A DNA stretch of 42,767 nt from Candidatus Heimdallarchaeota archaeon (GTDB lineage Archaea; Asgardarchaeota; Heimdallarchaeia; Heimdallarchaeales; Heimdallarchaeaceae), in assembly GCA_030668825.1 (NCBI GenBank), contig DAOVET010000015.1:1-42767 (forward strand). The letters run 5' to 3'. The notes below the pieces were generated by a model. The model saw only the letters and a list, made by a program, of their open reading frames with translations, made no database searches and was not told the origin of the DNA. This document shows, in pieces, positions 1-22,029 of the stretch. A program made the position numbers and the translations under genes. The first letter of the stretch is position 1. Each line of letters starts with the position of its first letter.

Positions 1-42
1 GTTATCTATAACCAGCGGTTTATTTTGAATCATCTCTTCCAT
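1..42 (-). CDS. 5' fragment of a probable actin-family (Asgard actin) gene, truncated by the window edge
   Basis: Manual translation from ATG at 42-40 gives MEEMIQNKPLVIDN, matching the actin phosphate-1 entry motif (LVxDNG). An SD-like GTGAT lies just upstream. Only 14 codons are visible. Confidence 0.65.
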   Translation of the reverse strand, partial: MEEMIQNKPLVIDN

Positions 43-268
43 AGATATCACTTTTACTTGTTTTTATTGAATCCAAATTTCGTCTTGGTCTTATGGATTC
101 ATAACCTTGAAGTATATATTAAATGTTTTGATAGTATTAGCCTAAATGACATGAACACTATCGTAGCTTTTATAAACAAAATTCAAAGTTCTACGTCGTT
201 ACAACTGCTAACTACATCTAGAAAAAATGATTGTTCTTCTGAAAGCCTTTGTTATATCAGTTTTTGGA

Positions 269-1261
269 CTACAGACTGCCATAGTACAGCAGATTTTCCC
301 TAATCTCCTTTTCGCTAAAACCTGCACTAATTCCGACAATAATTCTGATTATATCCATTGTCTCAGCGAGCTTCAATTCAAAGAAACCAATTAATGCATC
401 CATTTGCAGAACTGTTCCATAACGGAATGTCTTTTTCCAGTAATTTAATAAGTATCTCTCAACTGCAAATTCCAAATCATGTAATGGAACTTCTTTAACA
501 CCAATATATTTAGAAAAGACTGTTCGATAAGGAGCATAGTTATATGTTTCTAGAACTTCTTGAATACTTGTTGCCTTCAATCCCTTTACAGTGAATTTAT
601 TGCGTTGGATGAATCTATATGCAGGTACGTTTAGAGCTATACAGCGGCATAAAGCTAAGATGTTTTTCATATTAACATATGTTTCATAATGCTTTGATAC
701 TTTAGGTAGCATACTATAGATATGTTGATCTATTGCAGATTCTAGGGGAGTAAATCTTCCAGTTGCTTTAAATTCTTCATTTGCTAATTTGAGGTCTTCT
801 CGCAGAGTCTGATTATCTTGGTTAACAATTATTTCTTCAATTGACTTATTAAGTAATTTCGAATAATAATCGATTGAATAATCAGCAACTGGAACCAAAC
901 GGGATAAAATCTCTTCCTGCTTCATTTCTCTATTTATGCCTTGAAATATTATACGAAGATTTTCAACGTGATATCTCTCACTGTAATTTCTAATTTTCTT
1001 CTTAACTGAGGATCCTGACTGTTTGTAGAATTTAGTCAATAATTCAGAATAAGAATTTTTAAGATTTCTAGCTACATCAGAAATCTGTGTTTCAAAATTA
1101 AGGTCTCCAATAATGCTGTTATAGGCTGTTTGAGTAAAGGCAGCTCTTAATTCTTTAAGATTCTTAGAAGATAAAAGCAAGCTTATTTGTGATTTGGTTA
1201 AGAAGTTACTAACAGCCCCATGCGCTCTACCTAGTAAATAACTGATATCTCCAAGTGACAT
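269..1261 (-). CDS. atpC: A/V-type ATP synthase subunit C (homologue of eukaryotic V0 subunit d)
   Basis: YLLGRAHG N-terminus, ENLRIIFQG, LESAID and ETMDIIRII motifs; ~330 aa. ATG at 1261 lies immediately after the subunit I stop. Confidence 0.85.
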   Translation of the reverse strand: MSLGDISYLLGRAHGAVSNFLTKSQISLLLSSKNLKELRAAFTQTAYNSIIGDLNFETQISDVARNLKNSYSELLTKFYKQSGSSVKKKIRNYSERYHVENLRIIFQGINREMKQEEILSRLVPVADYSIDYYSKLLNKSIEEIIVNQDNQTLREDLKLANEEFKATGRFTPLESAIDQHIYSMLPKVSKHYETYVNMKNILALCRCIALNVPAYRFIQRNKFTVKGLKATSIQEVLETYNYAPYRTVFSKYIGVKEVPLHDLEFAVERYLLNYWKKTFRYGTVLQMDALIGFFELKLAETMDIIRIIVGISAGFSEKEIRENLLYYGSL

Positions 1262-1262
1262 T

Positions 1263-4200
1263 TTAACTACCTTTTTGCCTGACAAAATTGATTGAAACAA
1301 GTTTTTCTTTTAAGGGAAGGAATTCTTTACCATCCCCAGAATAGAACTTAGAGAACCATTCAACCCAGTGAAGCCTTAGTGTGTTAAGGAATGATAATAA
1401 TCCTTCTATTGGTAATATTATGAATACTGCCAATAGAATTCCTACGACCCACCATATCCAAGAGATACTAAGAGCTGAAACATAATGCCCATGTATTAAT
1501 CCTCCTGCAAAGTGTGACAAATCAATATGCGCTACGTCTAGGAATACCCCTGAAAATGTTGATACGCCTGCTACTAAATCCACCCCAGTTAAAGTAAATG
1601 GTAATCCACTTAAGATTGCATGAACAAGCAAGAGTGCCATAATTCGGCTGAATGAAAGTGTGTTTGATATTAGTGCAATAATGTGGTCAATTGCATCCAT
1701 AATTCCATCAGACTTAGCATGAAGATACTCTAAAACAAACAATACTGGGACTAGTCCGACCAGATATACAAACGCAGATGGTAACTGTTTAAGTGTAAAA
1801 TGAAATGCCTGCCAATATATTCCGTTCACTCCTACAATGATATTGTAAAGCATGGTAAAAATACCTACATAAATTATAGATAATGAAAGAGGAGCGCCCC
1901 AAGATGCAAATCCGTGACCATATCTCACGTTTTGATAAACTTTCAATAATATTCCTAATTGAATCATGAGAAATCCTAACATTAGAGCAACAATTAAGAT
2001 TAATTTTGTTTCATGTAGTGGATTGATTATAGGAATCCAGTTAATTCCTGCTTTGTGCATCAATTCAGGTATGAAATGTTCATCTCCTAGTAATGATCCA
2101 AAGAAGAACCCAAATATCGTTGCAGATAAACCGCAGAAAAGAAGTAGTTCCGCACCAGAATAAAGATATCCTGTAATCGATTCATCTGGCTCAATTTTAT
2201 TCTTCTTTTTCTTATATAGCAAGAATCCAGCTAATAATGACAATAAAATTCCATGTCCAATATCTGCAAACATGATACCAAATAAAAATGGAAATGTAAA
2301 CCTAACAATTGAATAAGGATCAACTTGTTTAGTGTTTGGTTGACCAATACCGCCTACAATTCCTCTTACTGCCCCAAATACTTTTCCTTGTTTTGTTATG
2401 GCGGGATTGACTAATGGAACATCTGGATTTTCAGTAATTTCCATCTCGAATGGTAAATCTTTCTTACTCTCATTCAGTTGATCTAAAACTGTTTTAGATG
2501 TCCAGCTCCATAGAACAATCTTTCCTTCGGATATTTGGCATAATTCAATGGTGTTTAATCGATTACTTTCAACATTAATTAGCTCTTCACAAGCAATCAA
2601 TTTGTATTTAACTTGATCTTTAATTTCTTGAAGTTCTTCTTCACTTTCCTTCAATTCTTTCTCAATTTCTTTCAAAGTGTCTTTCAATGAAACCTTTCTT
2701 TCAACCAGAGACAAATCGTAGTCTATTGCTTGGAAAGAATATTCATTTAAAACACGCAGAATGGAGTTTTCATACTCTTTTAAAGATAAAATTAAGATAT
2801 TCTTCTCATTTGAGCTTGAACTTGTAGGTTCAGAATCCCAGAATATAAGATTATTGTCTGTGACTTCTTTCAAAAAGAATTTCACAGATTTTAGGTTGGA
2901 TTTAGGAATAACTCCCAAGTAAGTTACAGTTTGGAAACCATCTTGAAGCAAAACTGCATCAATGCCTTTTTCTTTGAGACCTTCTTCAAAAGGAAGAGAT
3001 AATTTTACTTGATCCCGTTTCTTCAGGATTGCTTCGTGAGAATCAAAAGCCTTAATGATTTTCTCCTCATTTTCACGCAAGAAATTTTCTAAGAATGCCT
3101 TTGAGTGCCCATAATCATCAACAATATGATATTTCTCTGTATTCTGTTCCTTTGTATCCTTCATTTTGAGCATATTTAACAATCGATTAACTCTAGATTG
3201 ATATTGACTCAGTTCTTGTCTCAAACTATTGACCTTCTCTAGCGTATTTTCATCTAATGATCCAATTTTTACTGGATGGATTGCGTTAAGAGAGTAAATA
3301 TGAGAAATGAATTGACGAGATGAATCTTCTGGACTCTCTAATCTCACAAATAATGCTTTTTTTGCAAAAAGGAATCCTTCTCCACCCCCTCCAGAATGAG
3401 GGGGGTGAGGAATATAGCTGTCTATTTTGCTTTCTTCCTTATCAAATAGCTTTTTAATTAGTAATTCTTGCTCGATATCTCTTTCTTTTTTACGAGATAG
3501 CGGAACATCTTCCAGTATTACTATGGTACTATCTATTTGTAAAGAATCAATATTTTCAACAAGAACGGAGTAATTTTTAGATGCAACCCATCCCCATAAG
3601 GTAAAGTTTTTTGATGTAGTACGACCTCTTTCTTCCAATGTTAGAGTTTTGTGGGTTGCTTTGATGAGCGTTAGATGATACCTAGTTTTTTCTGCTAGTC
3701 CAGTTGATAACTGTCTAATGTCACCTTCTATTTTTTCAATATCTTGACTTACTTCAGAATGAAGTTTTTCTATTCTTGTTGTCTCTCTTATTTTTTCTAT
3801 GGATTTTAGAAGTTCAAGATCAAATTCTGTTTCATTGAAATAATTTTCTCTGAGAATCTCTCCTATTTGTTCTTTATAGTCAATCAAAGAAATACATATC
3901 ATTACATTTTTCTCACTATTGTCTGTAGGAGAACTCCAGAAAAACATCTGACCAGCTGTAACTTCACTTATGTAAAAACGAATAATTTCTTTATATTCAC
4001 TAGGAATCTCCCCTAAAACAGTGAAAGTTCTTGAGCTTGAAGATAATAGGTCGATTGAAAATTCATCATCCAAATTGCTTTGGAATTGTTTCAAAGATGA
4101 GAGAATTCTGTTCTCTTTCTTCAGTTTTTGTAATTCACTGGATTTTTCTATTATCTGATTTTCGTATTTTTCTAGAAAAACATCTAAACCCTTAATAATT

Positions 4201-4466: not shown

Positions 4467-4686
4467 TCATAAGCCACCGATACTCTAACTAATCACGATA
4501 GGAGATTTTGGGGAGATTTTAAAATCTTCCTCTCTGGCAGAATGGTCTATTAAAAAAATAGAATCAAACTTATTATCTGATAAGAGAGAACGAATAAACC
4601 AAGTTACTTTTCCATAGCCTGAAATAGCAAACTTCTTTCTAGTTATTATAAGCCTAGTAAAATAAAAAAAAGGAAAAAGAAATGGT

Positions 4687-5022
4687 TTATTTCTTTCTAA
4701 ATCTTCGCAATACTTCCAATGCTGCTAATCCTAGGAAGGACAGAAACACTAATGCTGTAATACCTGTTTCAGATGGGAAATTAGTCACTAATACTGTATA
4801 TCCCACATCCTCGCCATAACCAATTGCTACATCTAAATCATAGATGTATGGTTCAAGTGAATCATCGTAGCCAACTACTGAATCAGGGATTGTGACTGTA
4901 GCTGAAACACCAAGTCCACCAAGAATTTGATCAACAATGATTTCACGTGGACACGCGTGACTTATAGCTTTGCGTAGATATTTTGCTGCTAAAGGAGTAC
5001 CAAGAGGAGTTAGTTCACCAGT
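4687..5022 (-). pseudogene. C-terminal remnant of an OppA/DppA-type ABC solute-binding protein with membrane anchor
   Basis: Manual translation: TGELTPLGTPLAAKYLRKAISHACPREIIVDQILGGLG...YDDSLEPYIYDLDVA...ITALVFLSFLGLAALEVLRRFRKK*. No in-frame start codon between the upstream stop (5089-5091) and the homologous region. Confidence 0.7.
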
Positions 5023-5326
5023 TTTCCAATCATTAGATTGTTTTTTATTAATTTGCGAGGAATAATGTTTATTGTAATTATTGACATGCTATGATTTGAC
5101 AAAGTCGAAGTTCAAACATTAAAGGTGAATCTGTCGGATCCAGTAATAACCAGTAAACTAATTGTCTACTTCAAAGACTTGTATTCTAGTAAAAGATCAA
5201 GAAAAAATTATTGATCAATTTCTAACTTCTGAAAAAGAAGAGAAAAAGCTGCTAAGAGAAGATATTCTGATGAAATTTAGTAAACAATAGATTAAAATTC
5301 CAAAGATTTCCTCCCTAAATGAAAAA

Positions 5327-5713
5327 TTAAGGCCCCGATAATACTTCTATTGCTTCTGGAACATATCTTTTAATTACTTGCATAGCTAAACCTACATTAT
5401 GCAAATCTCTACTAGCACCAATCAAAATATATTCATCAGCACTTGCTAGTATTGTAAATCCTTCTTCACCACGAATTAAAACTTGTTCCAAATCTCCATG
5501 TGCTAGATTTCCACTTACCATTTTTCCAGTTGATAATATTGCAGAAGAAACCGCACTCAAGAGATCTGGATCTGTCCCCTTTTCAGAGAAGAAAGCAATT
5601 TTTATTCCTTCTGCATTAACAACTGCTAAAGCTTCTAAATCACACCCTAACGAGATTTGTTTTAATATTCTTACCAATTGTTTTTTTTGTGATACTGATA
5701 AATCAATAGACAT
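5327..5713 (-). CDS. Roadblock/LC7 (MglB/LAMTOR-like) domain protein
   Basis: AVVNAEG..IA, DLLSAVSSAILSTG, LxxGDLEQVLIRGEEG pattern; 128 aa. Confidence 0.88.
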   Translation of the reverse strand: MSIDLSVSQKKQLVRILKQISLGCDLEALAVVNAEGIKIAFFSEKGTDPDLLSAVSSAILSTGKMVSGNLAHGDLEQVLIRGEEGFTILASADEYILIGASRDLHNVGLAMQVIKRYVPEAIEVLSGP

Positions 5714-5900: not shown

Positions 5901-7130
5901 ATGAAATTATTGTTTGTTGTAATGGATGGTCTGGGTGATCGTCCTATTTCAGAGCTTGGAGGACAAACTCCTCTTGAATATGCGAAGACTCCAAATATGG
6001 ATAAACTGGCATCACTTGGGATGAATGGACTATTACATGTAATAGCACCAGGGGTTACTCCAGGAAGTGATACGGCCCATCTAGCACTGTTTGGTGTAGA
6101 TCCTTATGAATACTATACAGGGAGAGGTCCATTTGAGGCTGCTGGAATCGGATTAGTTGTGAAGGAGGGTGATATCGCTTTCAGAACAAACTTTGCAACA
6201 ATAAACCCAGAAGGTGTAATTATTGATAGACGAGCTGGAAGAATTAGAGAAGGAACTGATCAACTTGCTAAACTCTTTGAAGGTTTGGAAATTGATGGCA
6301 TCGAAATTCTATTGGAAGCAGGGACAGAACACAGGGCTGCTTTGGTTTTAAGAGGTGATGGATTGTCCGACCAAGTCTCAGAAAATGATCCTCATGTTGA
6401 AAGAAAAGAACCTTTAGAATTCAAACCCCTTGATGAGTCACCCGAAGCAGAAAAAACTGCAAGGGTTCTAACTTCTTTTGTTATGAAGGCAAGAACAATA
6501 CTAAATAATGCAGAACTCAATAAAAAGAGGGTAGAAGAAGATTTACTTCCTGCAAACTATTTACTAATTCGAGGAGCAGGTAAAGTTCCAAAATTACCCA
6601 ACTTTGAGGAGGAGTACTGCTTGGAAACTGCTTGTGTAGCCGGTGGAGGTTTATACAAAGGTATTGGTCGAATGTTAGGTATGCATATAATTGATGATTC
6701 TCGAATGTCTGGGGGGACAACTACAGATTTATTAGCAAAATTTGAGATTGCTCATAACGCTCTAAATGATTATGATTTTGTTTTTACTCATGTTAAAGGA
6801 ACTGATAATTATTCGCATGATGGGAAGTATAAAGAAAAATCTGAATTCATTGAAAGAGTTGATAAGGAGTTGTTTAGGTTTTTACCAGAGAACTACGAAG
6901 GAGATCTTGTTGTAATGATAACTGGTGATCATAGTACCCCCTGTAGTTTTAAAGATCATTCTGCAGATCCAGTACCAATTTTAATCTATTCACCAGATTG
7001 TAGAAGAGATAAGGTAGAGAAGTTTGGCGAAAGCTATGCAGTAGATGGAAGCTTGGGTCATATATTAGGAAAGCACATTATGGGTATTGCATTAAATGAG
7101 ATGAGATTGGTGCGCAAATTTGGGGCTTGA
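5901..7130 (+). CDS. apgM: 2,3-bisphosphoglycerate-independent phosphoglycerate mutase, archaeal type
   Basis: [32 protein letters not shown] and TGDHSTP motifs. Confidence 0.95.
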
Positions 7131-8103
7131 AACAGAAACACAAACGACCTTTTATCAAAGGTCTTTACCGTATTTGCAGTTATTTATTGCTATTATTTTT
7201 GTTTCATTCTCAGCAATCATTGTCGTATACCTAATTAAACTAGGAGTTCCTCCTGCTGTTACAGCTATGTATAGAACTTTTTTTGCAGGGATTGGCGCTT
7301 TAATACTCTCTCTTTACAAGAAAAGAATAAAATGGATTGGTGAAAAAACTACAATTAAAAGATATCATTGGATAGTTCTTTCTGGATTATTACTTGCAGT
7401 ACACTTTGCTACTTGGTTTATTTCCTTAGAATACGTTAACGTAGCTATATCTACAACTTTAGTAGATGCAGTTCCAATTTTCCTTGCCATTTTTGGTTTT
7501 ATATTTTTCAAGGAAAAAATAAATGCGATAGGAATCGTAGGTATAGGTATTGCTTTTACAGGTGGTGCGCTCCTTGCATTTTCTTCTCCAGTAGCTGAAA
7601 ATAGAAATTTGCTTTTAGGAATTATGTTCTCTCTTATTGGAGCTTTAACTGTAACATTTTATTTTCTAATAGGTAAGAAAATTCTCCAGGATTCACCTTT
7701 GTGGCCATATTTTGCTCTAGTAAACCTTGCATCTGCAATCTTTCTCTTATTTTATAATTTACTTGAAGGATATGAATTGTTTAGATATTCTGCAATTGTT
7801 TATCTTCTCTTTATTGTGTCTGCACTGGGGCCCTCTTTAATTGGTCACGCTACTTACAATTATACTTTAAAAAGACTACCTGCTTTTGTTGTAGGAGTAG
7901 CAATTTTGGGAGAACCAATTGGTGCCACTATACTTGGTGTTTTAATCTTCCCCCTAACTCAAACACCAGAATTAATAACTATCCTATTTGCATTAATTAT
8001 TCTTACAGGAATCGTATTAACGTCAGTTTCTCAATATATAAGTATTAAAAAATTTAGAAGAAAAAAGAAAAAAGAAGATGAATCAGATTCTATTCTCTCT
8101 TAG
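7120..8103 (+). CDS. DMT/EamA family transporter
   Basis: About 10 hydrophobic segments; HFATWFISL, IGH..YN and LGEPIGAT motifs. Confidence 0.9.
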   Translation: MGLETETQTTFYQRSLPYLQLFIAIIFVSFSAIIVVYLIKLGVPPAVTAMYRTFFAGIGALILSLYKKRIKWIGEKTTIKRYHWIVLSGLLLAVHFATWFISLEYVNVAISTTLVDAVPIFLAIFGFIFFKEKINAIGIVGIGIAFTGGALLAFSSPVAENRNLLLGIMFSLIGALTVTFYFLIGKKILQDSPLWPYFALVNLASAIFLLFYNLLEGYELFRYSAIVYLLFIVSALGPSLIGHATYNYTLKRLPAFVVGVAILGEPIGATILGVLIFPLTQTPELITILFALIILTGIVLTSVSQYISIKKFRRKKKKEDESDSILS

Positions 8104-9288
8104 TAGCTCATCTAATCTATTCATTGCAATGTCTATTTCTTCAAGAGTTGGTAAGTAGACCATTCTGAAACCATCATTTCCAAAAGGACCAAATCCCGAT
8201 CCAAATACTGTTAGAATGTGCTTCTTTCTAAGATAGTCAAAAACAAATTCCTTATCATTTTTCCATTTGAACTGGTCCATTGATATCATCGAAAAGATAT
8301 AAAATGCTGCTTCTGGTTTATTTACAACAATTCCATCCATTTCTGAAAGTCTATTGTAAATTAAATCTCTTCTTTCTTTTAGGATTTTAATAGTTTCTGG
8401 AAGATAAGAGCTCTGATCTTGTCTTAGAGCTTCAGCTCCTGCTTTTTGTAAAGGTGTTGAAGCACATAATCTAAGTCTAGTTAATTTATTTAACCCATCC
8501 CATGGTTCTTCTATTTTTCCCAAGGGATCATGAATATATGCATACGCTAAACGCCATCCTGGTGCAAGGAAAACTTTACTGAAGCCATTATAAGCTATCA
8601 CTGGAACATCTTTTGCCACTTCAGCTGTTGCAGTATGTTTCAGACCTTCATCCAGAACAAGTAAATCATATGTTTCATCTGAAACAATACATGCATCGTA
8701 TTCTCCAACTATGTCTACTATCTCTTTCAGCACTTTTTCAGGATATACTGAACCTGTGGGATTATTTGGTGTATTAAGAAATACTAATTTTGTTCTGTCG
8801 TTCATTAAAGATCGTATGTGATCTGGATCCGGATAATAGTTATCTTCAACTGCTGTCTTGTAATATTGCATATCATTTCCAAATATAGTACCGTTACCAG
8901 AGTAACTGGGATAATGAATCCCAGGAATTAGTATTCTATCTCCAGGATTAGTGAATGACATCAAAGTCATTTGAATACCTTCAGATACCCCAGCTGTTGC
9001 TATTACTTTATCAGCAGTAACCCCAACGTCATATTTTCTGTTTTCATAGTCAGCAATTGCTTCTCTAAATTCTAGAATTCCCCGAGAATCTGCATAATAG
9101 TTATAATTTTCCTCTTCGACATAACGAAGCGGTTCTGTCAAAATTTTAGGGGTTTTAAAACCATATTTTATTGGATCCCCAATATTAAGCTTAATGATTT
9201 TATGCCCTTTAGCTTCAACTTCATCTGCTGCAGCAATTACATCTCTAATTGCATAACTAAAACCTGCTGTACGGTCTGATATTTTCAT
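8083..9288 (-). CDS. PLP-dependent class I/II aminotransferase (alanine aminotransferase-like)
   Basis: YAIRD, LNIGDP, NTPNNPTG, SDETY and GFSK...PGWRL motifs. Confidence 0.9.
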   Translation of the reverse strand: MKISDRTAGFSYAIRDVIAAADEVEAKGHKIIKLNIGDPIKYGFKTPKILTEPLRYVEEENYNYYADSRGILEFREAIADYENRKYDVGVTADKVIATAGVSEGIQMTLMSFTNPGDRILIPGIHYPSYSGNGTIFGNDMQYYKTAVEDNYYPDPDHIRSLMNDRTKLVFLNTPNNPTGSVYPEKVLKEIVDIVGEYDACIVSDETYDLLVLDEGLKHTATAEVAKDVPVIAYNGFSKVFLAPGWRLAYAYIHDPLGKIEEPWDGLNKLTRLRLCASTPLQKAGAEALRQDQSSYLPETIKILKERRDLIYNRLSEMDGIVVNKPEAAFYIFSMISMDQFKWKNDKEFVFDYLRKKHILTVFGSGFGPFGNDGFRMVYLPTLEEIDIAMNRLDELLRENRI

Positions 9289-11265: not shown

Positions 11266-11292
11266 TGAAAAAAGGAAAGTAAAGAGAGGGAA

Positions 11293-11592: not shown

Positions 11593-11753
11593 ACAATTAC
11601 ACCTATTTTATAAGACCAACTATCGTAGGTCAATTTAAAAATTTCGGAAAGACAGCAAATCATGTTTTGAGTTAAAATAAATTCTGAAACAATACATATA
11701 ATAACCACGAAAGCTTAAATATGAATATACAATAACTAAACGCAGTGATTTAG
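11593..11753. promoter_or_regulatory. Divergent promoter region shared by atpK and the ESCRT-III operon
   Basis: 161-bp head-to-head gap with TATA-like boxes near 11634-11640 (minus) and 11714-11721 (plus); SD-like GGTG/GTGAT before the two starts. Confidence 0.5.
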
Positions 11754-12368: not shown

Positions 12369-12381
12369 AAGGTGAATAAAA

Positions 12382-13035: not shown

Positions 13036-13160
13036 TTCTTCCTTTTTTTGTATTTTTATTTTTGTAAGTTCTTAAAATCCATACTATGAAAATTATCAAT
13101 GTGTTATGAAACAAAATGAAACATTTTATATTAGATAAATGGAATAAATAGATAGAGGTT

Positions 13161-14312
13161 GTGAATCACGTGTCTGCTCAAGGATTAATAGATCATGCAA
13201 GAGATTTTGCAGTCAAAGCTTATTCCTTTGATAAAGAAAAAAACTACAGTGAAGCTATTCCACACTATTTAGATGCTGCTGAAGCTTTAATGAAAGCCAT
13301 AAGATTTGAAAGAAACCCTCAAGTTGCTCGTTCTCTCAAGAAGAAAGCCAATATGTACATTAGTAGAGCAAGGGAACTAAGGGAACTTCTAGAGAAGAGA
13401 AAAGAAAGGAAATCCACTGCAGGAAGTGATGAGGAGGAAAAACTAGAAAATGCTATATCTGATATAATCGTTACAGAGAAACCAAATATTACTTTAAAAG
13501 ATATAGCAGGTCTAGAAACCGCAAAGCAAACCTTGAGAGAAGCTATTGTTTTACCTCTGATGCGACCTGATTTATTCTCTGGAGCAAGAAAACCTTGGAA
13601 AGGTATTTTGCTTTTTGGTCCTCCTGGTTGTGGTAAAACTCTTTTAGCAAAAGCAACTGCAGCTGAAGTAGAAGCAACTTTCTTCAATGTTAGTGCATCT
13701 TCAATCATTTCAAAATGGCTTGGTGAATCAGAGAAATTGGTTAAACAGCTTTTCGAATTAGCAGATGAAAAACAACCCAGTATTATTTTTATTGATGAAG
13801 TTGATGCTTTAGCCGGCGCCAGAGGTGGAGAACATGATGCAATGCGTAGAGTTAAAACTGAGCTCTTAACATCAATGGACGGATTATCGAGTTCCGAAAC
13901 TGACAGAATAGTTACTGTAGGTGCTACTAATATGCCTGAATCTATAGACGGAGCATTCAGAAGAAGATTCGAGAGAAGAATTTACATTCCTTTACCAGAT
14001 TTACCAGCTCGTTCAGCTATTTTTGTTTTCAATACCAGGGGTGTTGAACTAGCTGAAGATGCTGATTTCGAAGTTCTAGCAGAAATTACAGAAGGTTATT
14101 CAGGTTCTGATATAGCAATGGTATGTAGAGAAGCAATCATGACTCCAATCAGAGAACTTGATATGGCTGGAGCTATTGAAGATACTTCAGTAGCTGCCCG
14201 GTCAGTAACCCAAGATGATTTTCTTGAAGCAATTGAATCAATTAACCCCTCTGTAAGTGATGATGAAATAGAAAAATACGATAACTGGAATGAAGAATTC
14301 GGCAGCGCATGA
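13161..14312 (+). CDS. vps4: Vps4 AAA+ ATPase (MIT plus AAA)
   Basis: MIT three-helix N-terminus, GPPGCGKT, SKWLGESEK pore loop, IFIDE, FRRRF and C-terminal EEFG. Confidence 0.95.
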   Translation: MNHVSAQGLIDHARDFAVKAYSFDKEKNYSEAIPHYLDAAEALMKAIRFERNPQVARSLKKKANMYISRARELRELLEKRKERKSTAGSDEEEKLENAISDIIVTEKPNITLKDIAGLETAKQTLREAIVLPLMRPDLFSGARKPWKGILLFGPPGCGKTLLAKATAAEVEATFFNVSASSIISKWLGESEKLVKQLFELADEKQPSIIFIDEVDALAGARGGEHDAMRRVKTELLTSMDGLSSSETDRIVTVGATNMPESIDGAFRRRFERRIYIPLPDLPARSAIFVFNTRGVELAEDADFEVLAEITEGYSGSDIAMVCREAIMTPIRELDMAGAIEDTSVAARSVTQDDFLEAIESINPSVSDDEIEKYDNWNEEFGSA

Positions 14313-15085
14313 TTCTAGAGGTTAAATCCATGTCTACCACTGAGAAGAAGAAGCCCAAGAAAGAGAGATCATCTGAAATAGATTTAAAAAAATTAAAAGA
14401 TGAAAAAGAGATTTCAGATGAGAAATTAAAACTAATTGAAGCCAGTATTAAAGGTTTGGAGATTACAGCTGAAGAATTGAAAGCTACTATGCCTGTTGAT
14501 GCTGTTTTTATGAAAGAAGATCTCTCTAAAGATCAAAGGGCTATGCTTGAACTAGAATTTGAGGAAGAGCTTCCAAAATGGGTGAAGAGACCTTGGATGT
14601 ATATCAAACCTAAGAAAACTGATCAAATTGAATCATGGCTCCAGAGTTGGTCTGCGATAGTATTGGACTACTCCCGTATTTTTGTGATTCACATAATTAA
14701 TATCAACGATTTGAGAAGTGGTCACCCCTTCAATAACAAAAGTTTAGGTAAGAGATTAACCCTTGCACAGGTAAGAAGTATCATTGATCATTTAGTTCAA
14801 CAGGATATTGCTCGTTGGTTAGATGAAAAAACAAAAACAAGGGCTCGCATTTATTGGAAATCAAATGAAGAATGGGCAGATGCACTATTAGACTTCATGC
14901 TAGATACTGGAAGAGTGGTTGAAATACACTCACTTTACGATTTAACTCAGTTGGAACAAAATTGGGGGAATTTGCCTGCTGATGATCTTATTATTGTGTG
15001 CGAAATGCTAGTAGAACGTAAAGTTGCTCGTTGGTTAAACAAAGAAAAAACAATAATTCAGTTTGAAGCTGATAAAGTGTTTTAG
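14309..15085 (+). CDS. vps25: ESCRT-II Vps25 (EAP20) with a charged N-terminal extension
   Basis: PW.Y..P..QIESWLQSWS..LDY, PF.N....RL and IYWKS.EEWA motifs; likely start at 14330. Confidence 0.88.
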   Translation: MILEVKSMSTTEKKKPKKERSSEIDLKKLKDEKEISDEKLKLIEASIKGLEITAEELKATMPVDAVFMKEDLSKDQRAMLELEFEEELPKWVKRPWMYIKPKKTDQIESWLQSWSAIVLDYSRIFVIHIININDLRSGHPFNNKSLGKRLTLAQVRSIIDHLVQQDIARWLDEKTKTRARIYWKSNEEWADALLDFMLDTGRVVEIHSLYDLTQLEQNWGNLPADDLIIVCEMLVERKVARWLNKEKTIIQFEADKVF

Positions 15086-15100
15086 ACTTTTTTTTCTGAA

Positions 15101-15838
15101 TTATAGTCCCATTAAACCTGGAAACCAGAATTTTACTCCTTCAGAATAGCTACGGTCAACTCTAGCTATGCTATTTTCTTCAAAGAATTTTAAACATCTA
15201 TCTATTCGTTCTTCAGTCCAACTTGTTCTCATGAGTAAATCTTCCTTTGTAACAAAACCAACTCTGGATGCATAATTTAGAATAACATCATGGTCTGGAC
15301 TAAACTCAACAGGAACAAATTCAACAATCTTCAATCCTGAATCTAACACTCTATATGGTGGGATTAATTGAGTATTGATTAATTTCTCCAAGGATCGATA
15401 CATATCATCAATTGAAACCATCCTCCCAGGACGAGTTTTATTTAGCTGTGTGAATAGTTCTCCGATTGCCATAATTCCACCGTTTTCTGATATCATCTGT
15501 TGCCCTATTTCAAGAATTTCATTAGCTAATACATCAAAGAAGCCCTTTCCAGTAAGTTTATCTTTGAGAGTTGGAGTTTCTTTCCAGTCAAAACGTCCAA
15601 TTTCGGTGGGTAATCCTAATTCTTCTCGCAGATTTGCTAATTTATCATAATAATCTTTATTTTCAGAGATCTTATCACCGTATTTTTTCTCAAACTTTTT
15701 CAGTTGTTTTTTGACTTCACTAATATTATTTACCATCTGTTCTAATTCTTTAATCATTAGCTCTGCCGCTTTTACTTGAAAAGCTGACTTAATTTTGATC
15801 TTTTTCTCTATATCTCTTAAACCCACTTCTATCTCCAA
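15101..15838 (-). CDS. ESCRT-II Vps22/Vps36 (EAP30) winged-helix protein
   Basis: VGL N-terminus, FF..LA.EILE....NGGIM, VS.DD..RS, W..ERI and FWFPG C-terminus. Confidence 0.9.
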   Translation of the reverse strand: MEIEVGLRDIEKKIKIKSAFQVKAAELMIKELEQMVNNISEVKKQLKKFEKKYGDKISENKDYYDKLANLREELGLPTEIGRFDWKETPTLKDKLTGKGFFDVLANEILEIGQQMISENGGIMAIGELFTQLNKTRPGRMVSIDDMYRSLEKLINTQLIPPYRVLDSGLKIVEFVPVEFSPDHDVILNYASRVGFVTKEDLLMRTSWTEERIDRCLKFFEENSIARVDRSYSEGVKFWFPGLMGL

Positions 15839-15895
15839 CCTTGTTATTGTCTAGGACTTATTTATATCTTCTCAAATTAATTGATTAAACAATTA

Positions 15896-16210
15896 TTATA
15901 CAGTGTTTGATAATTTTAAAAGCCATTTCTTTATCTTTTCAGTTAAAGAGCTACTCTCCCTTGGTGAAAGAAAAGCTGCAAGTTTGTTTTTATATTTGTT
16001 AAAATATGAATTATAGACATTCATCATTTCTTCATGGATTTGCTTACCTTCTTCTCCTAAATTCTTGATTTCGTATGAAATATCTTCCAATTCCTCAAGA
16101 ATATAGCCCATATCTATCTTTATCTCTATCATGTTGATTAATTCAAACATTTCTTTTCTAATGTTAACAAATATCTCGTTAATAGAGCTAGTTCTTTCCA
16201 AGTAATTCAC
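15896..16210 (-). CDS. Hypothetical small helical protein
   Basis: 104-aa ORF filling the gap between the ESCRT-I and ESCRT-II genes on the same strand; no recognisable motif. Confidence 0.5.
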   Translation of the reverse strand: MNYLERTSSINEIFVNIRKEMFELINMIEIKIDMGYILEELEDISYEIKNLGEEGKQIHEEMMNVYNSYFNKYKNKLAAFLSPRESSSLTEKIKKWLLKLSNTV

Positions 16211-16274
16211 CTAGTAACTTATATTAAAGAATGGAAAGAAAGGAATCTAGAACGTTTCAAGTCTTTTATTTACA

Positions 16275-17723
16275 TTAAAGTTCTTTCAATACTCTTCGAA
16301 AGTCATTTAACCAACGAGCTGCTTGAAATTCTAATTTTTCGCAATCTTCTTCTTTAATGATCTCCTGCGGCTTATATTTTCCTATAATTTCACGCCAATT
16401 ATTCATATCTCCAATAACCCAATGGTCTTTTGGTATTGAAGGAAATGTTTTCAGAATGTGAATCATTTCTTCGATGTCTGCTATTATGAGATCTGCTCTA
16501 GCTACTGATCTTAATCTAGTTAAATCAATAAGTTCAATCGCAGATGAAACGAAATCAGCTGTTTTAGATGGGATTTTCTTGAGTGTATCAAATGGAATTG
16601 AGCTGGTATCTGCAGTTTCTTTCCCTTCAACAACCATGAGTTGTTTGATTCCCTTTTGATATCTATTATTTAGATTCTCTCGTTTCACAAAATCATCTAA
16701 ATTAAATCCTACTTTTTCTAATTCTAATCTTGTTTTGAAAATTCCTCTAATAAGCGCACGAAGTTGCTTTCTATAAGCAATCTGCTCAATTTCACTTTTT
16801 TCGTAACTGCTAACTAGATTGTCTAAAGTTGCAATTGAAGCAAACAGATCAGCTTCCAAATTCAATATTTTTTCTTCTGCTTTTGTCATGTCACCACTTG
16901 AGCTACTTTTAACTTGAGTGAGTTGTTTCTCAGCTATAAAACCTTTTTTAGCATATCTTTTATGTAATTTGAGGTAATCAATATTAGTCATGTCACCATC
17001 CTCAAATTTTTCCTGTATTATTTCTAGAGTATCTTGGACAGATAATGATTCAGCTCTCAAATCGTCTTCTAATGATATAGAAATCTCTTTAGTTCTACTT
17101 TGTACAGCTATTCCGCCTTCTTTCAATAGAGCTTCTCTTTCTTTTTCTATATCTCTGGAAACATGCTCTATTTTATCTTGATAATTGACAATTGTTTTAT
17201 CGATAGATCGTCTTTCTTCCTCAATTCTTGGATCTATACTTGCGAAAGAAGCTTGAGGTATTGTCTTCACAGGAATTGTTGCTCTAGGTAATGTTGAAAA
17301 TCTTTGTTCCCCTTTTGGTTTCTTAGTCTTTGTCTTGTATGGTTTAGCAGGAACATTGATGAAAAGTTGTTTTATATCAATCATAACCTGATAAATATGA
17401 TACCTAATTTCCCATTCTGCAAGAAGACGCATACTTAATGTGCCATCTTCATCCACATTAGGGTGATTTACTTTAGGAGTAATATCAACAAATGGAGGTA
17501 TTTCAGGGAAACCATCCTGAATGTAAATGTTGGCAAAAATTGGTATCTCAGTACCTTCTATTGTTCCAACATAGCCTTTCCATTGTTTCAAATTACCTCT
17601 AACAGGTTCGAAATTTATTTGTTTATCGAATACTAATTGCATTTCATTTGCAAGATGGAAATCGTCTGTGGAAATTTTGTTCACCTTTCTAATTATATCT
17701 CTAAATAACTTGATACCAATCAA
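16275..17723 (-). CDS. ESCRT-I fusion: UEV (Vps23/TSG101-like), stalk, steadiness boxes and Vps28
   Basis: FPEIPPFV..HPNVDEDGTLSM (E2 fold with Ser at the catalytic Cys position), two steadiness-box-like hairpins and a C-terminal helical bundle. Confidence 0.85.
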   Translation of the reverse strand: MIGIKLFRDIIRKVNKISTDDFHLANEMQLVFDKQINFEPVRGNLKQWKGYVGTIEGTEIPIFANIYIQDGFPEIPPFVDITPKVNHPNVDEDGTLSMRLLAEWEIRYHIYQVMIDIKQLFINVPAKPYKTKTKKPKGEQRFSTLPRATIPVKTIPQASFASIDPRIEEERRSIDKTIVNYQDKIEHVSRDIEKEREALLKEGGIAVQSRTKEISISLEDDLRAESLSVQDTLEIIQEKFEDGDMTNIDYLKLHKRYAKKGFIAEKQLTQVKSSSSGDMTKAEEKILNLEADLFASIATLDNLVSSYEKSEIEQIAYRKQLRALIRGIFKTRLELEKVGFNLDDFVKRENLNNRYQKGIKQLMVVEGKETADTSSIPFDTLKKIPSKTADFVSSAIELIDLTRLRSVARADLIIADIEEMIHILKTFPSIPKDHWVIGDMNNWREIIGKYKPQEIIKEEDCEKLEFQAARWLNDFRRVLKEL

Positions 17724-17764
17724 AGTTTAAAAAATGTTGCATTTGAAAAGCGAAAAATGACTAA

Positions 17765-18769
17765 TTACTCAGATAATTGTAAAACTATTTTGATTGGTTG
17801 GGCTAAATTCTTGTCTAGAACGAATACAATAGCCTTTTTAGAATCCAGCGCATCTTCAAGTAATGATTCAACCTTTAACAGTTTTCCTTGCACCATTAAG
17901 TCTGGTTTTTCTAACCCATAAGTCAACATCAATCTCATTCTGAGCTCTTTTACAGTTTCAGTTGGAAGCGCCACAAACTCGATTTGTTCTAATTTATACA
18001 TCTCTCCACAGGCTGGACAGTCCTTGGTTTTTTCTAGTTCTATAATTGTAGTAGCATTATGAAGACCATCATAGAAGAGATAATTTTCCAATTTTTCACC
18101 TAGTTCCAGAATTAACTTTATTGTTTCCTGAGCCATTATCCCCCCAATAATTGATGATAATGTAGCAACAGCTGGCAATGGTGGCTCTACATCTATTTCT
18201 TTCCTCTCCTTTTTCCTTTCTTCCCCAAATGGAGAGCATGCTTGAGCTAACTCTTCGTCTGGTACCAAAGGCTGGCATTCGAAACAAGCTGTTTCATACG
18301 GAATAATTACTTGTGCATTACCCAAGAAAGCAAACATACCCCCCATAACAAGTGGTTTTTTTACTCGAATAGCCATCGAATTGATCCATCTTCTTCCAAT
18401 AAAAGTATCTAAACAAGCCACTATAACATCTGCTTGCTCATAAACTGATACTGAAATATTCTCCATCTTTTTATGATAAAAATCAATCTCGATTTTGGGG
18501 TTTATTTCTTTCAATCTTTGTACAGCTGTTTCTGATTTTGATTTACCAACATCCTCATCTTTGAACAATAATTGTCGATTTAGATTCGAAACTTCAATTG
18601 TATCAAAATCAATAATCGTAAGTTTACCTATTCCTGAAGAGACAAGTACAGTTGCTGCATAGCTCCCTATTGCTCCAACCCCCACTAGAACAACAGAACT
18701 ATTGTCAAGTTTTAGTTGATCCCATCCTGGAATAAGTTGTTGTCTTGAGTAGCGCTCATCTCCATCCAT
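17765..18769 (-). CDS. Ubiquitin-activating E1-like enzyme (ThiF/Uba family) with a C-terminal ubiquitin-fold-like domain
   Basis: RYSRQ, GVGAIG, D.DTIEVSNLNRQ, CFEC/CPAC Zn pairs and putative catalytic Cys in QACSP. Confidence 0.9.
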   Translation of the reverse strand: MDGDERYSRQQLIPGWDQLKLDNSSVVLVGVGAIGSYAATVLVSSGIGKLTIIDFDTIEVSNLNRQLLFKDEDVGKSKSETAVQRLKEINPKIEIDFYHKKMENISVSVYEQADVIVACLDTFIGRRWINSMAIRVKKPLVMGGMFAFLGNAQVIIPYETACFECQPLVPDEELAQACSPFGEERKKERKEIDVEPPLPAVATLSSIIGGIMAQETIKLILELGEKLENYLFYDGLHNATTIIELEKTKDCPACGEMYKLEQIEFVALPTETVKELRMRLMLTYGLEKPDLMVQGKLLKVESLLEDALDSKKAIVFVLDKNLAQPIKIVLQLSE

Positions 18770-18908
18770 TTAATGAACTCCTTGAATGACTCACATAGAA
18801 AGAACTGATATAAGTTTCTTTTTACTATCACACTGAAAACAACGAGAAAATCTATAAAAAGAGCTTTTTATGAAAGAAAATTAAATTAAAAGAAGTGGTT
18901 AGATAAAA

Positions 18909-19145
18909 CTAAAGTCCACCTTTAGTTCTAGCAATAAGATAGCATTTATCGCCATCCATCATTCCTGTTTGTTTTAGTATCTCACTGTCATCAAGTTGCT
19001 TACCATGGAAAACTATAATGACGGTGTTCGCAGGAATTTTCTTCTTTTTAGCAACTTCTCTCTTTAATTGAGCAACTGTTGAATGTGGATCAACATCTAA
19101 ATCTATTTTTCCTCCACCAATTGCTGTTACTACAGTTATTCTCAC
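18909..19145 (-). CDS. Ubiquitin homologue (precursor ending in GG-L)
   Basis: Beta-grasp pattern M.I.V.T, TV.QLK, IVFHGKQL.D and C-terminal TKGGL. Confidence 0.93.
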   Translation of the reverse strand: MRITVVTAIGGGKIDLDVDPHSTVAQLKREVAKKKKIPANTVIIVFHGKQLDDSEILKQTGMMDGDKCYLIARTKGGL

Positions 19146-19254
19146 TTTTGTTCACACCTAAATCTTTCTAAATTTCTATTAACATATTCATTCTTAAAGC
19201 TTACCAAATTGTTCTGCGTTTTTTGAATTTGCAAAAGTTTGAAGTTTTGGGGAA

Positions 19255-19653
19255 TTAATAGGTTGTCTTCTTTTCCCTTTCTCCCTTTCTTTTTATTGTT
19301 ATAGAGGAAGGAATCCCCTCTATCTCTCTTTCTAGCTTTTTGACACCTAATCTCGATATCTGTTTTCCCTCAAGAAAACCAATCTTAATCATATATAACA
19401 CGTTTTTGAAAATTGTTTCTGCAGTTGGTTTTTTAGATAGATTCTCATAGAGATTGATCCAGTAATTATAAGCATCTGGGCCCAAAAAATATTCCATTAA
19501 CGCCAATTTATCTTTTTCTTCTATACTTGCTGGAGATTCTTCTGCCTCTTTTAACTCTTCCATACGCTGTTTTCTTTGTTCAGCAATTTGCATTAATTCT
19601 TTTGCTTTTCTTTGCTTAATTTTCTCCAGTTCATCATCAGTTGTCATTGGCAA
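19255..19653 (-). CDS. Divergent PDCD5/TFAR19-like DNA-binding protein
   Basis: DDELEKIKQRK N-terminus, LGPDA, ITIKRK C-terminus. Confidence 0.55.
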   Translation of the reverse strand: MPMTTDDELEKIKQRKAKELMQIAEQRKQRMEELKEAEESPASIEEKDKLALMEYFLGPDAYNYWINLYENLSKKPTAETIFKNVLYMIKIGFLEGKQISRLGVKKLEREIEGIPSSITIKRKGEREKKTTY

Positions 19654-19714
19654 TCTTCAGCACAAAGCAAGGAATCAAGTTATTAAACTTATTTTTTTAT
19701 CACTTAAAGCAGTC

Positions 19715-20409
19715 CTAAGATTTGTTTATAGGTAAATGTTTCTTAACAGTTAGGAATCTAGATAAAACATTAAATTTTTCTGCATATTTTACTCCACACT
19801 TCATTCCATTGGATCGCCGATTAACATCTAACCAATCATCAACTTGTTGCCAATCATAAAAATCACCATAAAGTTTGGCTACTTCCTTAACTTTCTCAAA
19901 AGAGGAGGTTATATCTATGTAGATTGTTGGCAAAGGTGATACTTCCTCATGATACATGAAGATTGGAATATGAAGTGGAGGTCTATAAGGATCTAGCGGC
20001 TCTGTTATCTTTGGAATACGCGCATATGTGATTGCATCATAGAGTATTTGAGCAGTTCCTCTGTGATTCGGATGTCTTGTGTTCATTGACCATGTTACTA
20101 CTGCATCTGGTTTGACCTCAGCTATCACTTTAGCCATTTTCAGTGCACTTTCTCTTGTAGCTCTCACGGATGTATCACCATATCCTAGAAAAAGAGTTTC
20201 ACAACCAATTATCTTCCCAACATCTTTCCCTTGTTTTTCTCTTATTTCTTTCACTTCAGAAAAAGACATATCGTTAAAATGTGAAGCCATTTCACCACTA
20301 GCACAACTTTATCTCCCTTCTCAACATGATTAACTAAAGTACCTATGCACCCAACTTCATCATCAGGGTGTGCTACACATGCTAAAATTGTTTTTCTTCC
20401 AGTATTCAT
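19715..20409 (-). pseudogene. PIG-L/LmbE family N-acetyl deacetylase, frameshifted
   Basis: Upstream frame from ATG 20409 reads MNTGRKTILACVAHPDDEVGCIGTL...KVVL. The continuation SGEMASHF...HPNH...YAEKF is in another frame, with the shift near 20300. Confidence 0.8.
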
Positions 20410-20557: not shown

Positions 20558-21178
20558 ATGTATGATGAACATAGAACTCAAAAAGTTGCTCGAATTATAG
20601 AAATCCCCATTCCTCTTGAGTTCTTCGATATGTTGCAGGATTTGGTTTCATACTATGGGAATAATGATAAAGCAGTTTTAGAGTCTATCAAGGCACATCA
20701 TAAGGAAATGTTCGGCTCATTGGATGATTTTAGAATACAGATAGCGTCAACAGTCTCCAGAGGAGTGAAAACGGTTTCTGGGATGAATACCCCTGTTACG
20801 GATGGTAGATTAGCTAGAATCATTGAGAATGGTAAGAAATTTGAACAAAAAACCCAGAAAGAAATTGAAAAAGTGGATAAATTACTTAATAAACTTGAAA
20901 ATACTACTGTTTTTAAGGAATTGAAAGAAGAAATCTCTTCAATGAAAAGTATGATTGAGAGAATACAATCTACAGGGGTAATCACACAAAAACCTAGAGG
21001 TCCCAAAGCAGATCTTTCTTCTTTGGAAATAGAAATTGATGATTCAGTAACAGGATCAATGTCTCCACCAGAAAGACCCTTGCTTGATACAGTTCTAGAT
21101 AGTATGCTTTTCTTTGATGATGAAGAATTAGCTGAAGATTCTGAAGAAGAAATCAAAAAAGAAACAGAAGAAAATTAA
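20558..21178 (+). CDS. Hypothetical protein (possible ribbon-helix-helix N-terminus, coiled coil, acidic tail)
   Basis: 206-aa ORF with typical composition; heptad region KFEQKTQKEIEKVDKLL. Confidence 0.6.
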   Translation: MYDEHRTQKVARIIEIPIPLEFFDMLQDLVSYYGNNDKAVLESIKAHHKEMFGSLDDFRIQIASTVSRGVKTVSGMNTPVTDGRLARIIENGKKFEQKTQKEIEKVDKLLNKLENTTVFKELKEEISSMKSMIERIQSTGVITQKPRGPKADLSSLEIEIDDSVTGSMSPPERPLLDTVLDSMLFFDDEELAEDSEEEIKKETEEN

Positions 21179-21179
21179 T

Positions 21180-21716
21180 TTATTTTTTTGATTGATTGAC
21201 TAATAATTGTGCAATATTAGTGAAAGCTTCCTCTACTTGATTTCCAGTTAATGCACTTGTTCTGATGCTAAAATGGCTTTTTATTTTTGTGTGAACTGCA
21301 TCATATTCTTTTTTTGAAACAGCAATTTGATTTTTTAAATCTTCTTTATTACCAATAAGAACTTTGATTACATCTTTACCACAGTTATCTACAAATTCTT
21401 TTTCCCACTTTTGAACATCTTTGAGAGTTGCAGCTCTTGTTAAATCATAAACTAATAATGCTGCCCTTGCCCCTTTATAGAATGTGTGTCGGATGAAACG
21501 AAACCTTTCTTGCCCTGCTAAATCCCAGATAGAAAGAGCAACTCTTGTTCCATCTTCTAAATCTATGTGTTTTTCAGACGGTTCCATGCCGATAGTCATA
21601 AGGTAGGAACTATCAAATCTATCGTGAACAAATCGTTGTACTAAACTTGTTTTACCAACAGCTGCGGATCCTAATAATAAGATTTTGTAGTTGTAATCTG
21701 GTTGAATTTTACTCAT
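21180..21716 (-). CDS. Rab-like small GTPase
   Basis: GSAAVGKT (G1), TIG (G2), WDLAGQERF (G3), NKED (G4) and SAL (G5); no C-terminal Cys motif. Confidence 0.93.
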   Translation of the reverse strand: MSKIQPDYNYKILLLGSAAVGKTSLVQRFVHDRFDSSYLMTIGMEPSEKHIDLEDGTRVALSIWDLAGQERFRFIRHTFYKGARAALLVYDLTRAATLKDVQKWEKEFVDNCGKDVIKVLIGNKEDLKNQIAVSKKEYDAVHTKIKSHFSIRTSALTGNQVEEAFTNIAQLLVNQSKK

Positions 21717-21717
21717 T

Positions 21718-22029
21718 TTACTCCTCTTCTAGTAGTTTAGCTATTCTTTCCAAATCCTCTATGAGACTATCTAAATAAAACTTTTCAAAACTACCCTCAG
21801 CTCTGTCAATAGTACTTAGAGAAATACAGAGATCTTCAATGGCTTCTTTGTGTTCTTTTTCTTGTTGTGTCGGTAAATAGCTCTTTATTTTTCTTAGAAC
21901 TTTTTTTGCCATTCCTGAAGTGAGTTTGCGATTAATTGTACCTTCTTGATAAGCTTGTACTGTAGAGCGCATCCATAAAGCCACGTTATACAAATTGTCA
22001 ATCTCATCGGGAGGGGAAATAGTGGTCAT
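21718..22029 (-). CDS. Hypothetical helical protein coupled to the Rab-like gene
   Basis: 103 aa; its stop is separated by one base from the GTPase ATG. Confidence 0.7.
   Translation of the reverse strand: MTTISPPDEIDNLYNVALWMRSTVQAYQEGTINRKLTSGMAKKVLRKIKSYLPTQQEKEHKEAIEDLCISLSTIDRAEGSFEKFYLDSLIEDLERIAKLLEEE

Follow-up and report, generated by a model that had tools for sequence, protein, structure and literature searches.

Inherited gene order as a probable explanation for rotary ATPase genes beside the ubiquitin-ESCRT cluster of a Heimdallarchaeaceae genome

The DNA described here (hereafter, the window) is the entire 42,767-bp contig DAOVET010000015.1 (C2) of Candidatus Heimdallarchaeota archaeon GCA_030668825.1, a 138-contig, 2.76-Mb assembly with 90.6% completeness and 4.67% contamination; the GC content of the window is ~33-36%. 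Its first 22 kb carry the genes of three rotary A/V-type ATPase subunits, I, C and K (eukaryotic a, d and c), near the start of an actin gene, a Roadblock gene, a cluster of ubiquitin and ESCRT genes (Ub-ESCRT cluster), and a gene for a Rab-like GTPase. A preliminary description of the window had proposed that the membrane sector of the ATPase may be genetically uncoupled from the catalytic sector and co-regulated with membrane remodelling. Our comparisons show that these genes are kept in order across one family, Heimdallarchaeaceae, and we consider that the window probably represents inherited gene order, with an already known ESCRT cluster lying beside pieces of an anciently fragmented ATPase gene set. 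The genes, identified by Pfam scans of the open reading frames (ORFs) of the window, are as follows (lengths in amino acids, aa).

1-33, minus (33 to 1): actin, first 11 codons (MIQNKPLVIDN), with the remainder on contig C31
269-1300, minus: A/V-ATPase subunit C (eukaryotic d); AC39 PF01992, 105 bits
1263-4466, minus: A/V-ATPase subunit I (eukaryotic a), 1067 aa; PF01496, 133.5 bits
4467-5326: 860-bp spacer with short ORFs between I and Roadblock
5327-5713, minus: Roadblock/LC7, one domain, 128 aa; PF03259, 43 bits
5901-7130, plus: apgM (Pfam)
7120-8103, plus: EamA transporter (Pfam)
8083-9288, minus: class I/II aminotransferase (Pfam)
9451-10860, plus: u469, uncharacterised, conserved in the family (alignment)
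10885-11265, minus: u126, 126 aa, uncharacterised
11293-11592, minus: A/V-ATPase proteolipid K (c), 99 aa; PF00137, 66 bits
11593-11753: divergent intergenic region between K and Snf7a, 161 bp
11754-12368 and 12382-13035, plus: Snf7a and Snf7b, ESCRT-III proteins of the Snf7 family (Pfam)
13161-14312, plus: Vps4, with MIT, AAA and Vps4_C domains (Pfam)
14309-15085, plus: Vps25, ESCRT-II (Pfam), overlapping Vps4 by 4 bp
15101-15838, minus: EAP30/Vps22-like (Pfam)
15896-16210, minus: u104
16275-17723, minus: UEV (UQ_con)-Vps23_core-VPS28 fusion (Pfam)
17765-18769, minus: ThiF-type E1 (Pfam)
18909-19145, minus: ubiquitin (Pfam)
19255-19653, minus: u132
19715-20290, minus: PIG-L-like (Pfam)
20558-21178, plus: u206
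21180-21716, minus: Ras-family (Rab-like) GTPase, 178 aa (Pfam)
21718-22029, minus: u103, 2 bp upstream of the GTPase gene on the same strand

The gene content that the preliminary description had given for this region (I, C, K, Roadblock, ESCRT-I/II/III, Vps4, ubiquitin, E1 and a Rab-like GTPase) is borne out by Pfam, as is its remark that housekeeping genes interrupt the region (apgM, EamA and the aminotransferase at 5901-9288). Ubiquitin, E1, ESCRT-I, ESCRT-II, ESCRT-III and Vps4 all lie inside 11754-19145, and the minus-strand run at 15101-20290 reads, in transcription order, PIG-L-like, u132, ubiquitin, E1, UEV-Vps23-Vps28 fusion, u104 and EAP30; the sole UQ_con match in the Ub-ESCRT cluster is the UEV-like N-terminal part of the ESCRT-I fusion. 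The closest solved relatives of the GTPase are a Thorarchaeota Rab (1.3e-40) and then Rab11; its match to the Gtr1_RagA G-domain is weak (27 bits) and it is without a C-terminal roadblock domain. The best solved matches of the Roadblock protein are prokaryote-type Robl_LC7 proteins, and its orthologs in sister families share 48-57% identity with it. The actin named as probable in the preliminary description is represented in the window by no more than the 11 codons listed above; the full gene, however, is found on an overlapping contig, since C31:1-141 and window bases 1-141 are exact reverse complements of each other and C31 holds a complete actin gene (Pfam Actin, 448 bits). In all the family relatives fetched, actin neighbours I-C, either at ~240 bp downstream of C or in a divergent position to I; this and the overlap make the earlier actin call right in context. 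A plus-strand ORF at 1-303 (100 aa) is without a family match and looks spurious. On C31 a prefoldin beta gene (1412-1753) directly follows actin, and housekeeping genes come after it.

The arrangement is reproduced in relatives. Of the 25 genomes of the same genus (g1), 13 have I and Vps4 on a common contig at a distance of 8-11.4 kb, and the remaining 12 have them on different, mostly short contigs. The full gene order is identical in G013, G012, G024, G001, G016 and G004, and the I-C pair is inverted between actin and Roadblock in G004, G008, G005, G022, G011 and G021. The whole block is present in genus g10 (G043). It is rearranged in two single-contig genomes of genus g11, in which u126-K and Snf7a-Snf7b-Vps4-Vps25, the remaining Ub-ESCRT genes and Rab-u103 stand together, with Roadblock, C-I and actin ~8 kb beyond Rab-u103 and u469, NADK, the aminotransferase and EamA farther away; u206, the Rab-like GTPase and u103 are all retained in the block in g10 and g11. 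Alternatively, the contig might be a chimera of unrelated regions created during assembly or binning, for which the 138 contigs, the contamination of 4.67% and a second, ~80%-like D gene at the end of contig C10 could be cited. The same order in at least 13 genomes of the genus and in G043, together with its rearranged form in the two single-contig genomes, effectively refutes this explanation, and we regard it as extremely improbable.

Outside the family, the adjacency of the ATPase and ESCRT genes disappears. The ESCRT genes are 17 kb from I-C-K-u126 in G035 (sister family), 72 kb from I-C-K in G030 (outside the family), and on contigs separate from I in the other genomes outside the family, while none of 20 loci sampled around I across the phylum (described below) has ESCRT genes within ~10 kb of I. 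An AAA gene located 600 bp after K in G025 turned out not to be Vps4, the ortholog of which (56% identity) is on another contig. The preliminary description had tied its proposal to the presence of the adjacency in related genomes; accordingly, the proposal fares differently at the two levels, the adjacency being absent outside the family but kept inside it across three genera.

Whether conservation inside the family exceeds that of ordinary DNA can be judged from a synteny control, in which 400 kb of G065 (a single-contig genome of g11) around the locus were compared with this whole genome (269 ORFs with a best hit). Pairs of neighbours up to 5 kb apart in G065 lie on the same contig here in 66% of cases outside the block (n=802) vs. 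56% inside (n=135); the corresponding values are 52% (n=1521) vs. 46% (n=255) for pairs up to 10 kb apart and 34% (n=3669) vs. 40% (n=503) for pairs up to 25 kb apart. The entire window, housekeeping half included, maps to 1.554-1.630 Mb of G065, and its housekeeping genes (the aminotransferase, EamA, NADK and the genes at 26-42 kb) remain in the same G065 region. That is, the block is no better kept than the flanking 355 kb and, hence, its conservation at the family level is not evidence of selection.

These results bear most directly on a functional reading of the neighbourhood, according to which K-u126 and I-C are co-regulated with ESCRT-III/Vps4 and may work together with the products of the actin, Roadblock and Rab-like GTPase genes to remodel membranes or acidify compartments. 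We consider this reading unlikely; the comparisons lend it no support, although they do not refute it. Besides the background level of synteny, it has to accommodate that the interrupting housekeeping genes are retained equally well, that two unrelated genes part I from Roadblock in G001, that outside the family the ESCRT genes are 17-72 kb off or on another contig, and that, in relatives with a single ATPase, I, C and K must serve the general enzyme.

On the other hand, several observations weigh against inheritance as the whole explanation and in favor of the functional reading. The control counted C2 and C31 as separate contigs, which lowers the figure for pairs inside the block, and it covers one pair of genera only. 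Further, the copy numbers in the 2.76 Mb (34 Ras-family, 6 Roadblock and 2 actin matches) correspond to a rough expectation per 22 kb of ~0.27 Ras-family, 0.05 Roadblock and 0.016 actin genes, and these low counts make a chance co-occurrence unlikely; within 23 kb of ESCRT, two ATPase loci together with actin, Roadblock and a Rab-like GTPase are thus improbable if genes are placed at random, with the proviso that the estimate is post hoc and concerns one historical arrangement. The divergent arrangement of K-u126 and Snf7a-Snf7b-Vps4-Vps25 around the 161-bp intergenic region survives other rearrangements in all three genera (g1, g10 and g11), and that region carries two conserved A/T-rich boxes, of which the BRE/TATA-like box on the Snf7a side is kept even in g10; we infer from these boxes a putative divergent promoter region shared by the two gene groups. 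Actin and Roadblock flank I-C in both orientations of the inversion. The family-specific location also coincides with a family-specific extra domain in I (below). Finally, G035 has a Roadblock ortholog, ESCRT and I-C-K-u126 inside 35 kb of one contig, and a looser linkage may therefore predate the family.

The preliminary description had also placed the genes for A, B, D, E, F and H outside the window. Consistent with this, Pfam scanning of the window's ORFs returned none of them, and they were found on C11, C10, C82 and C116, where they, together with I, C and K, form two ATPase gene sets, one compact and one dispersed. The compact set, which also supplies the second copies of I and K, is an operon at C116:1-10100 (locus L006) that comprises F, then A-B-D-Usp-E-I(687 aa)-K(159 aa, two hairpins), with C alongside (Usp, universal stress protein); a second I of this C116 type is present in most genomes of the genus. 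In the dispersed set, A-B are on C11 at ~15-18 kb, an H/G-like gene and F on C11 at ~20 kb (2 kb from A-B), D on C11 at ~29 kb (10 kb further along; a second copy ends contig C10) and E on C82, and the window contributes I-C and K. The name H/G for the C11 gene (u106, 102 aa) is provisional and derives from its position beside F, its size and its coiled-coil character only, given that its full-length alignment to V-ATPase_G_2 is not significant (E 4.6). The two D genes (C10:4023-4688 and C11:29267-29848) are ~80% alike, the former at the very end of a 4.7-kb contig, and they may reflect strain heterogeneity or bin contamination. Also on C11 (L005 8245-9014 of this genome, G000), a 2-phosphosulpholactate phosphatase (ComB-like) appears as two adjacent ORFs of 111 and 143 aa, each matching half of the Pfam model, possibly a frameshift or a split gene.

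Relatives indicate that the dispersal is neither recent nor limited to this genome. G065, G109, G043 and G030 have one A/B pair each, so that the dispersed set is their only rotary ATPase. In G065, K is at 1.586 Mb, I at 1.610 Mb, H at 1.809 Mb, A/B at 1.845 Mb and E at 2.220 Mb, and I is 235-250 kb from A/B in the complete relatives. The A-subunit frames of G065 (C1:1845540-1846127), G109 (C1:1975248-1975835) and G035 (C19:9489-10082) extend to 1096, 1096 and 815 aa, respectively, vs. ~596 aa here, and may contain an intein-like insertion. The three sister families in the same order provided ten I loci. Every one has I directly beside C, and in nine K comes next, the tenth reaching the end of its contig; two have a u126 homolog behind K and one has E ahead of I, and no matches to A, B, D or F were present in the fetched flanks of any of the ten. 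A wider sample drew on 17 further Asgard families and comprised twenty loci, each covering approximately 10 kb to either side of I. Four of these include A/B (within ~10 kb of I) and best match the compact C116-type genes; in the other 16, I is accompanied by K and/or C, and in some cases by E, without any A/B. Taken together, the sister-family and phylum loci without A/B (10/10 and 16/20) show that membrane-sector genes lie apart from catalytic genes widely in the phylum. Two I loci stand out in other respects: L063 (G051:C36), in which ~3.3 kb of back-to-back K/c matches (11498-14806) directly follow I and represent either one very long c subunit with many hairpins or a tandem array of c genes, and L055 (G042:C14), in which two different I genes, each with its own K, occur inside 7 kb with no A/B nearby.

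Hence, the part of the earlier proposal that has the membrane sector encoded apart from the catalytic sector holds. The separation itself is real, but it is not special to this lineage, and it does not follow a clean two-module split, as scattering extends to A-B, H-F, D and E and even I-C and K are parted by 6.8 kb. From the comparison of gene order, I-C and K of the window can be read as the split halves of the I-C-K(-u126) operon that is intact in sister families. We favor the following scenario for how the neighbourhood came about. The three subunits belong to the cell's ordinary rotary ATPase, I as the proton-conducting stator, C as the rotor-coupling subunit and K as the rotor ring, and would assemble with A, B, D, E, F and H encoded elsewhere; the separate encoding of I/C/K and A/B, found in many Asgard families, is old. 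An ancestral operon, I-C-K-u126, would then have split in the ancestor of this family, its pieces (I-C and K-u126) ending up within 7-23 kb of the Ub-ESCRT cluster, with actin, Roadblock and the Rab-like GTPase near, and the arrangement would since have been inherited along with a well-conserved chromosome region. Under this scenario, the juxtaposition itself would be neither under selection nor co-regulated.

The window's I and C proteins have several features that are relevant to their function. The end of the I gene and the start of the C gene overlap by 38 bp, which suggests an I-C operon. Subunit C matches AC39 over its full length (profile positions 3-338 of 339), and a sequence search returned no solved relative for it; subunit I scores well above the curated Pfam threshold (133.5 vs. 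30.7 bits). Its hydrophobic segments at 726-1032 correspond to the C-terminal multi-helix membrane domain, in which R941 (presumably the counterpart of the essential Arg of characterised enzymes) and other residues are invariant across 27 I proteins, and the protein thus looks functional. The usual I protein has one N-terminal hairpin domain, in place of which two tandem copies are found here. Specifically, residues 6-229 align with 373-597 (26% identity over 231 aa, E 1e-12, self BLASTP), and an AlphaFold2 model (pLDDT 78) has two element-for-element repeats at ~4-317 and ~372-679, with a disordered linker between them and the membrane domain after the second. Alignment and model thus agree on a tandem duplication of the N-terminal soluble (stator) domain (~1-320 and 372-680). 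Single-domain I proteins of other families align to the second copy, and those of sister families (684-789 aa) match residues ~360-1055 only. A full-length frame of 1043-1071 aa is present in 20 of the 24 other genomes of g1, fragmented over contig ends in three and not found in one, and genera g10 and g11 have I proteins of 1057-1061 aa; judged by these lengths, the doubled domain spans this family and not its sister families.

Such a domain, next to the presence of two ATPase sets, raises a further possibility, i.e., a division of labour in which the C116 operon encodes the ATP synthase and the dispersed set a specialised V-like pump, with the extra I domain docking stalks or regulators. This possibility is compatible with either the inherited-order or the functional reading. 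It would account for the two complete sets here and the second I in most genomes of the genus, for the affinities of the two I proteins (the window I has eukaryotic a subunits as its best solved matches, 3e-21, ahead of Enterococcus I, 2e-12, whereas the best solved match of the C116 I is Enterococcus I, 1.8e-25), and for a duplicated domain that is predicted to be well folded, with the same order of elements in both copies. However, g10 and g11 carry the doubled I with one A/B pair, which places it in their sole, general-purpose enzyme; the window K, by sequence and hydropathy, comprises a hydrophobic N-terminal segment and a single hairpin, its last helix carrying a Glu, and thus has a synthase-compatible form, rather than that of the eukaryotic four-helix c; and Pyrococcus A is the nearest relative of the A subunit in either set. 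A predicted complex of E(1-110), the H-like protein and I(1-372) scored 0.01 (mark 0.32), which speaks neither for nor against stalk binding. Overall, a division of labour seems to us rather improbable.

Returning to the genes between the ATPase pieces, u126 is co-directional with K and 27 bp downstream of it. Its product is soluble and beta-rich (confident model, pLDDT 81), and no relative of known function emerged: a Foldseek search of the PDB found nothing at E <= 0.001, the best hits of a wide VIA-align search (Z 5.0; small ribosomal proteins and glyoxalase-like half-domains) were not convincing, the ESM Atlas offered no usable hit and Pfam none even at E 5, and all 57 homologs found are labelled hypothetical, including HeimAB125_13990 (87% identity). 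In a profile search, u126 was present in 99 of 151 sampled Asgard genomes, mostly in single copy, and in none of the 25 genomes of family f13. In the three genera of the window's own family and in two genomes of sister families, the gene comes after K; in G026 and G028 it is within ~1 kb of E, and in 15 f10 genomes among the matches listed, as well as in G068, G076 and G025, it shares a contig with I at a distance of 4-13 kb. It is not part of the f10 ATPase operon, since a tRNA methyltransferase, a winged-helix protein and two uncharacterised genes intervene before I, and linkage to I is absent in families f5, f6, f7, f9, f11, f12, f16, f21 and f24. A functional tie of u126 to the ATPase is conceivable, though we would sooner doubt it than assume it. 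A still more specific proposal joins these threads: the family would have developed its ATPase stator along eukaryote-like lines, the doubled a-type domain docking a third peripheral stalk or regulators, u126 would serve the membrane sector as a subunit or assembly factor peculiar to Asgard archaea, and K would share a regulated promoter with ESCRT-III/Vps4, so that pumping and scission are coordinated. We regard this combination as quite improbable.

Four CxxC pairs are found in the N-terminal part of u469, the product of the other uncharacterised gene between the pieces; its further features are a coiled coil, a PH-like middle and, at the C terminus, a conserved helix that is amphipathic and has an acidic-aromatic tail. 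Weak leads for it are an ANCHR-like B-box (0.0064), PH_PLEKHM2 (0.2) and Atlas values of 0.82 and 0.77. ANCHR is a Vps4-binding protein, and a role of u469 as an ESCRT adaptor is conceivable; its C-terminal helix may be MIM-like, in which case the MIT domain of Vps4 would be a candidate partner. As to the spacer at 4467-5326, its short ORFs, compared by eye, resemble the C-terminal ends of two G001 genes, encoding a 601-aa membrane-anchored solute-binding-like protein and a 285-aa LRR protein, that occupy a 3-kb gap there (L022 5328-8310), and the spacer looks like the remnant of a deletion. Beyond 22 kb the contig carries metabolic and chaperone genes, among them two adjacent, divergent paralogs of the aromatic amino acid lyase (HAL/PAL) family (513 and 507 aa; 28171-31399). 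No Rfam family reached its gathering score in the window and no tRNA was found.

Asgard archaea are the closest archaeal relatives of eukaryotes and, therefore, a functional link of V0, ESCRT, actin and Rab, if true, would bear on the origin of acidified, remodelled internal membranes; the more specific joint proposal above, if true, would mean that proton pumping and membrane scission are coordinated in a prokaryote, foreshadowing the endolysosomal association of V0 and ESCRT. Such a link is not established by our data, and the neighbourhood most likely behaves like ordinary inherited gene order. What appears to be new is that most sampled Asgard lineages have their rotary ATPase split into a membrane-sector locus and catalytic loci, that one family has a doubling of the a-subunit stator domain, and that a widespread uncharacterised protein, u126, recurs beside different ATPase subunit genes; in openly accessible main texts, we found no report of Asgard ATPase operon fragmentation, of the doubled I domain or of the u126-ATPase linkage.

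It is instructive to compare the locus with known systems. The canonical archaeal A-type ATP synthase operon has the order H-I-K-E-C-F-A-B-D. The same subunit families are all found in this genome but, unlike in that operon, the dispersed set is spread over six or more loci, and its subunit I has the doubled N-terminal domain. The eukaryotic V0 sector (a, c-ring, d) is resembled in that the genes for the a, c and d homologs are separated from the catalytic genes here and that the window I is nearest to eukaryotic a subunits; it differs in its four-helix c, as opposed to the single hairpin of the window K (99 aa, one PF00137 stretch), and in that no e, c'', Ac45, C or H homologs were identified here. 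Nor does the locus give any sign of reversible V1-V0 dissociation or of an internal compartment. The Ragulator/LAMTOR-Rag-V-ATPase module acts at lysosomes, and a Roadblock gene beside a- and d-type genes, with a small GTPase nearby, recalls it; in contrast to that module, the Roadblock protein here is a single 128-aa domain, and the GTPase is Rab-like rather than a Rag-type partner.

The Ub-ESCRT cluster itself is already known in Asgard archaea. It was published for Heimdallarchaeota AB_125, including the UEV-Vps23-Vps28 fusion (Hatano et al. 2022, PMC9192718), with ubiquitin, E1, the fusion, Vps22-like, Vps25, two ESCRT-III proteins and Vps4 clustered as they are here, and the AB_125 homolog of u126 (HeimAB125_13990) is only a few locus tags from HeimAB125_14070 of that study. 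The terms "ATP synthase" and "ATPase subunit" do not occur in its main text, and its synteny plots reach only 2 kb from the ESCRT genes, which explains why the ATPase, actin, Roadblock and Rab neighbours are not discussed there. For the ATPase, compact "group 2" A/V-type operons with E beside P-loop subunits have been described from Promethearchaeota and Thermoproteota (bioRxiv 10.64898/2026.10.01.756066). The C116 operon and the four phylum loci with A/B near I match this compact type best, a likeness that concerns the C116 ATPase and not that of the window. Finally, the literature on ATPase evolution, as far as it is accessible, has noted the Asgard affinity of a eukaryotic non-catalytic subunit.

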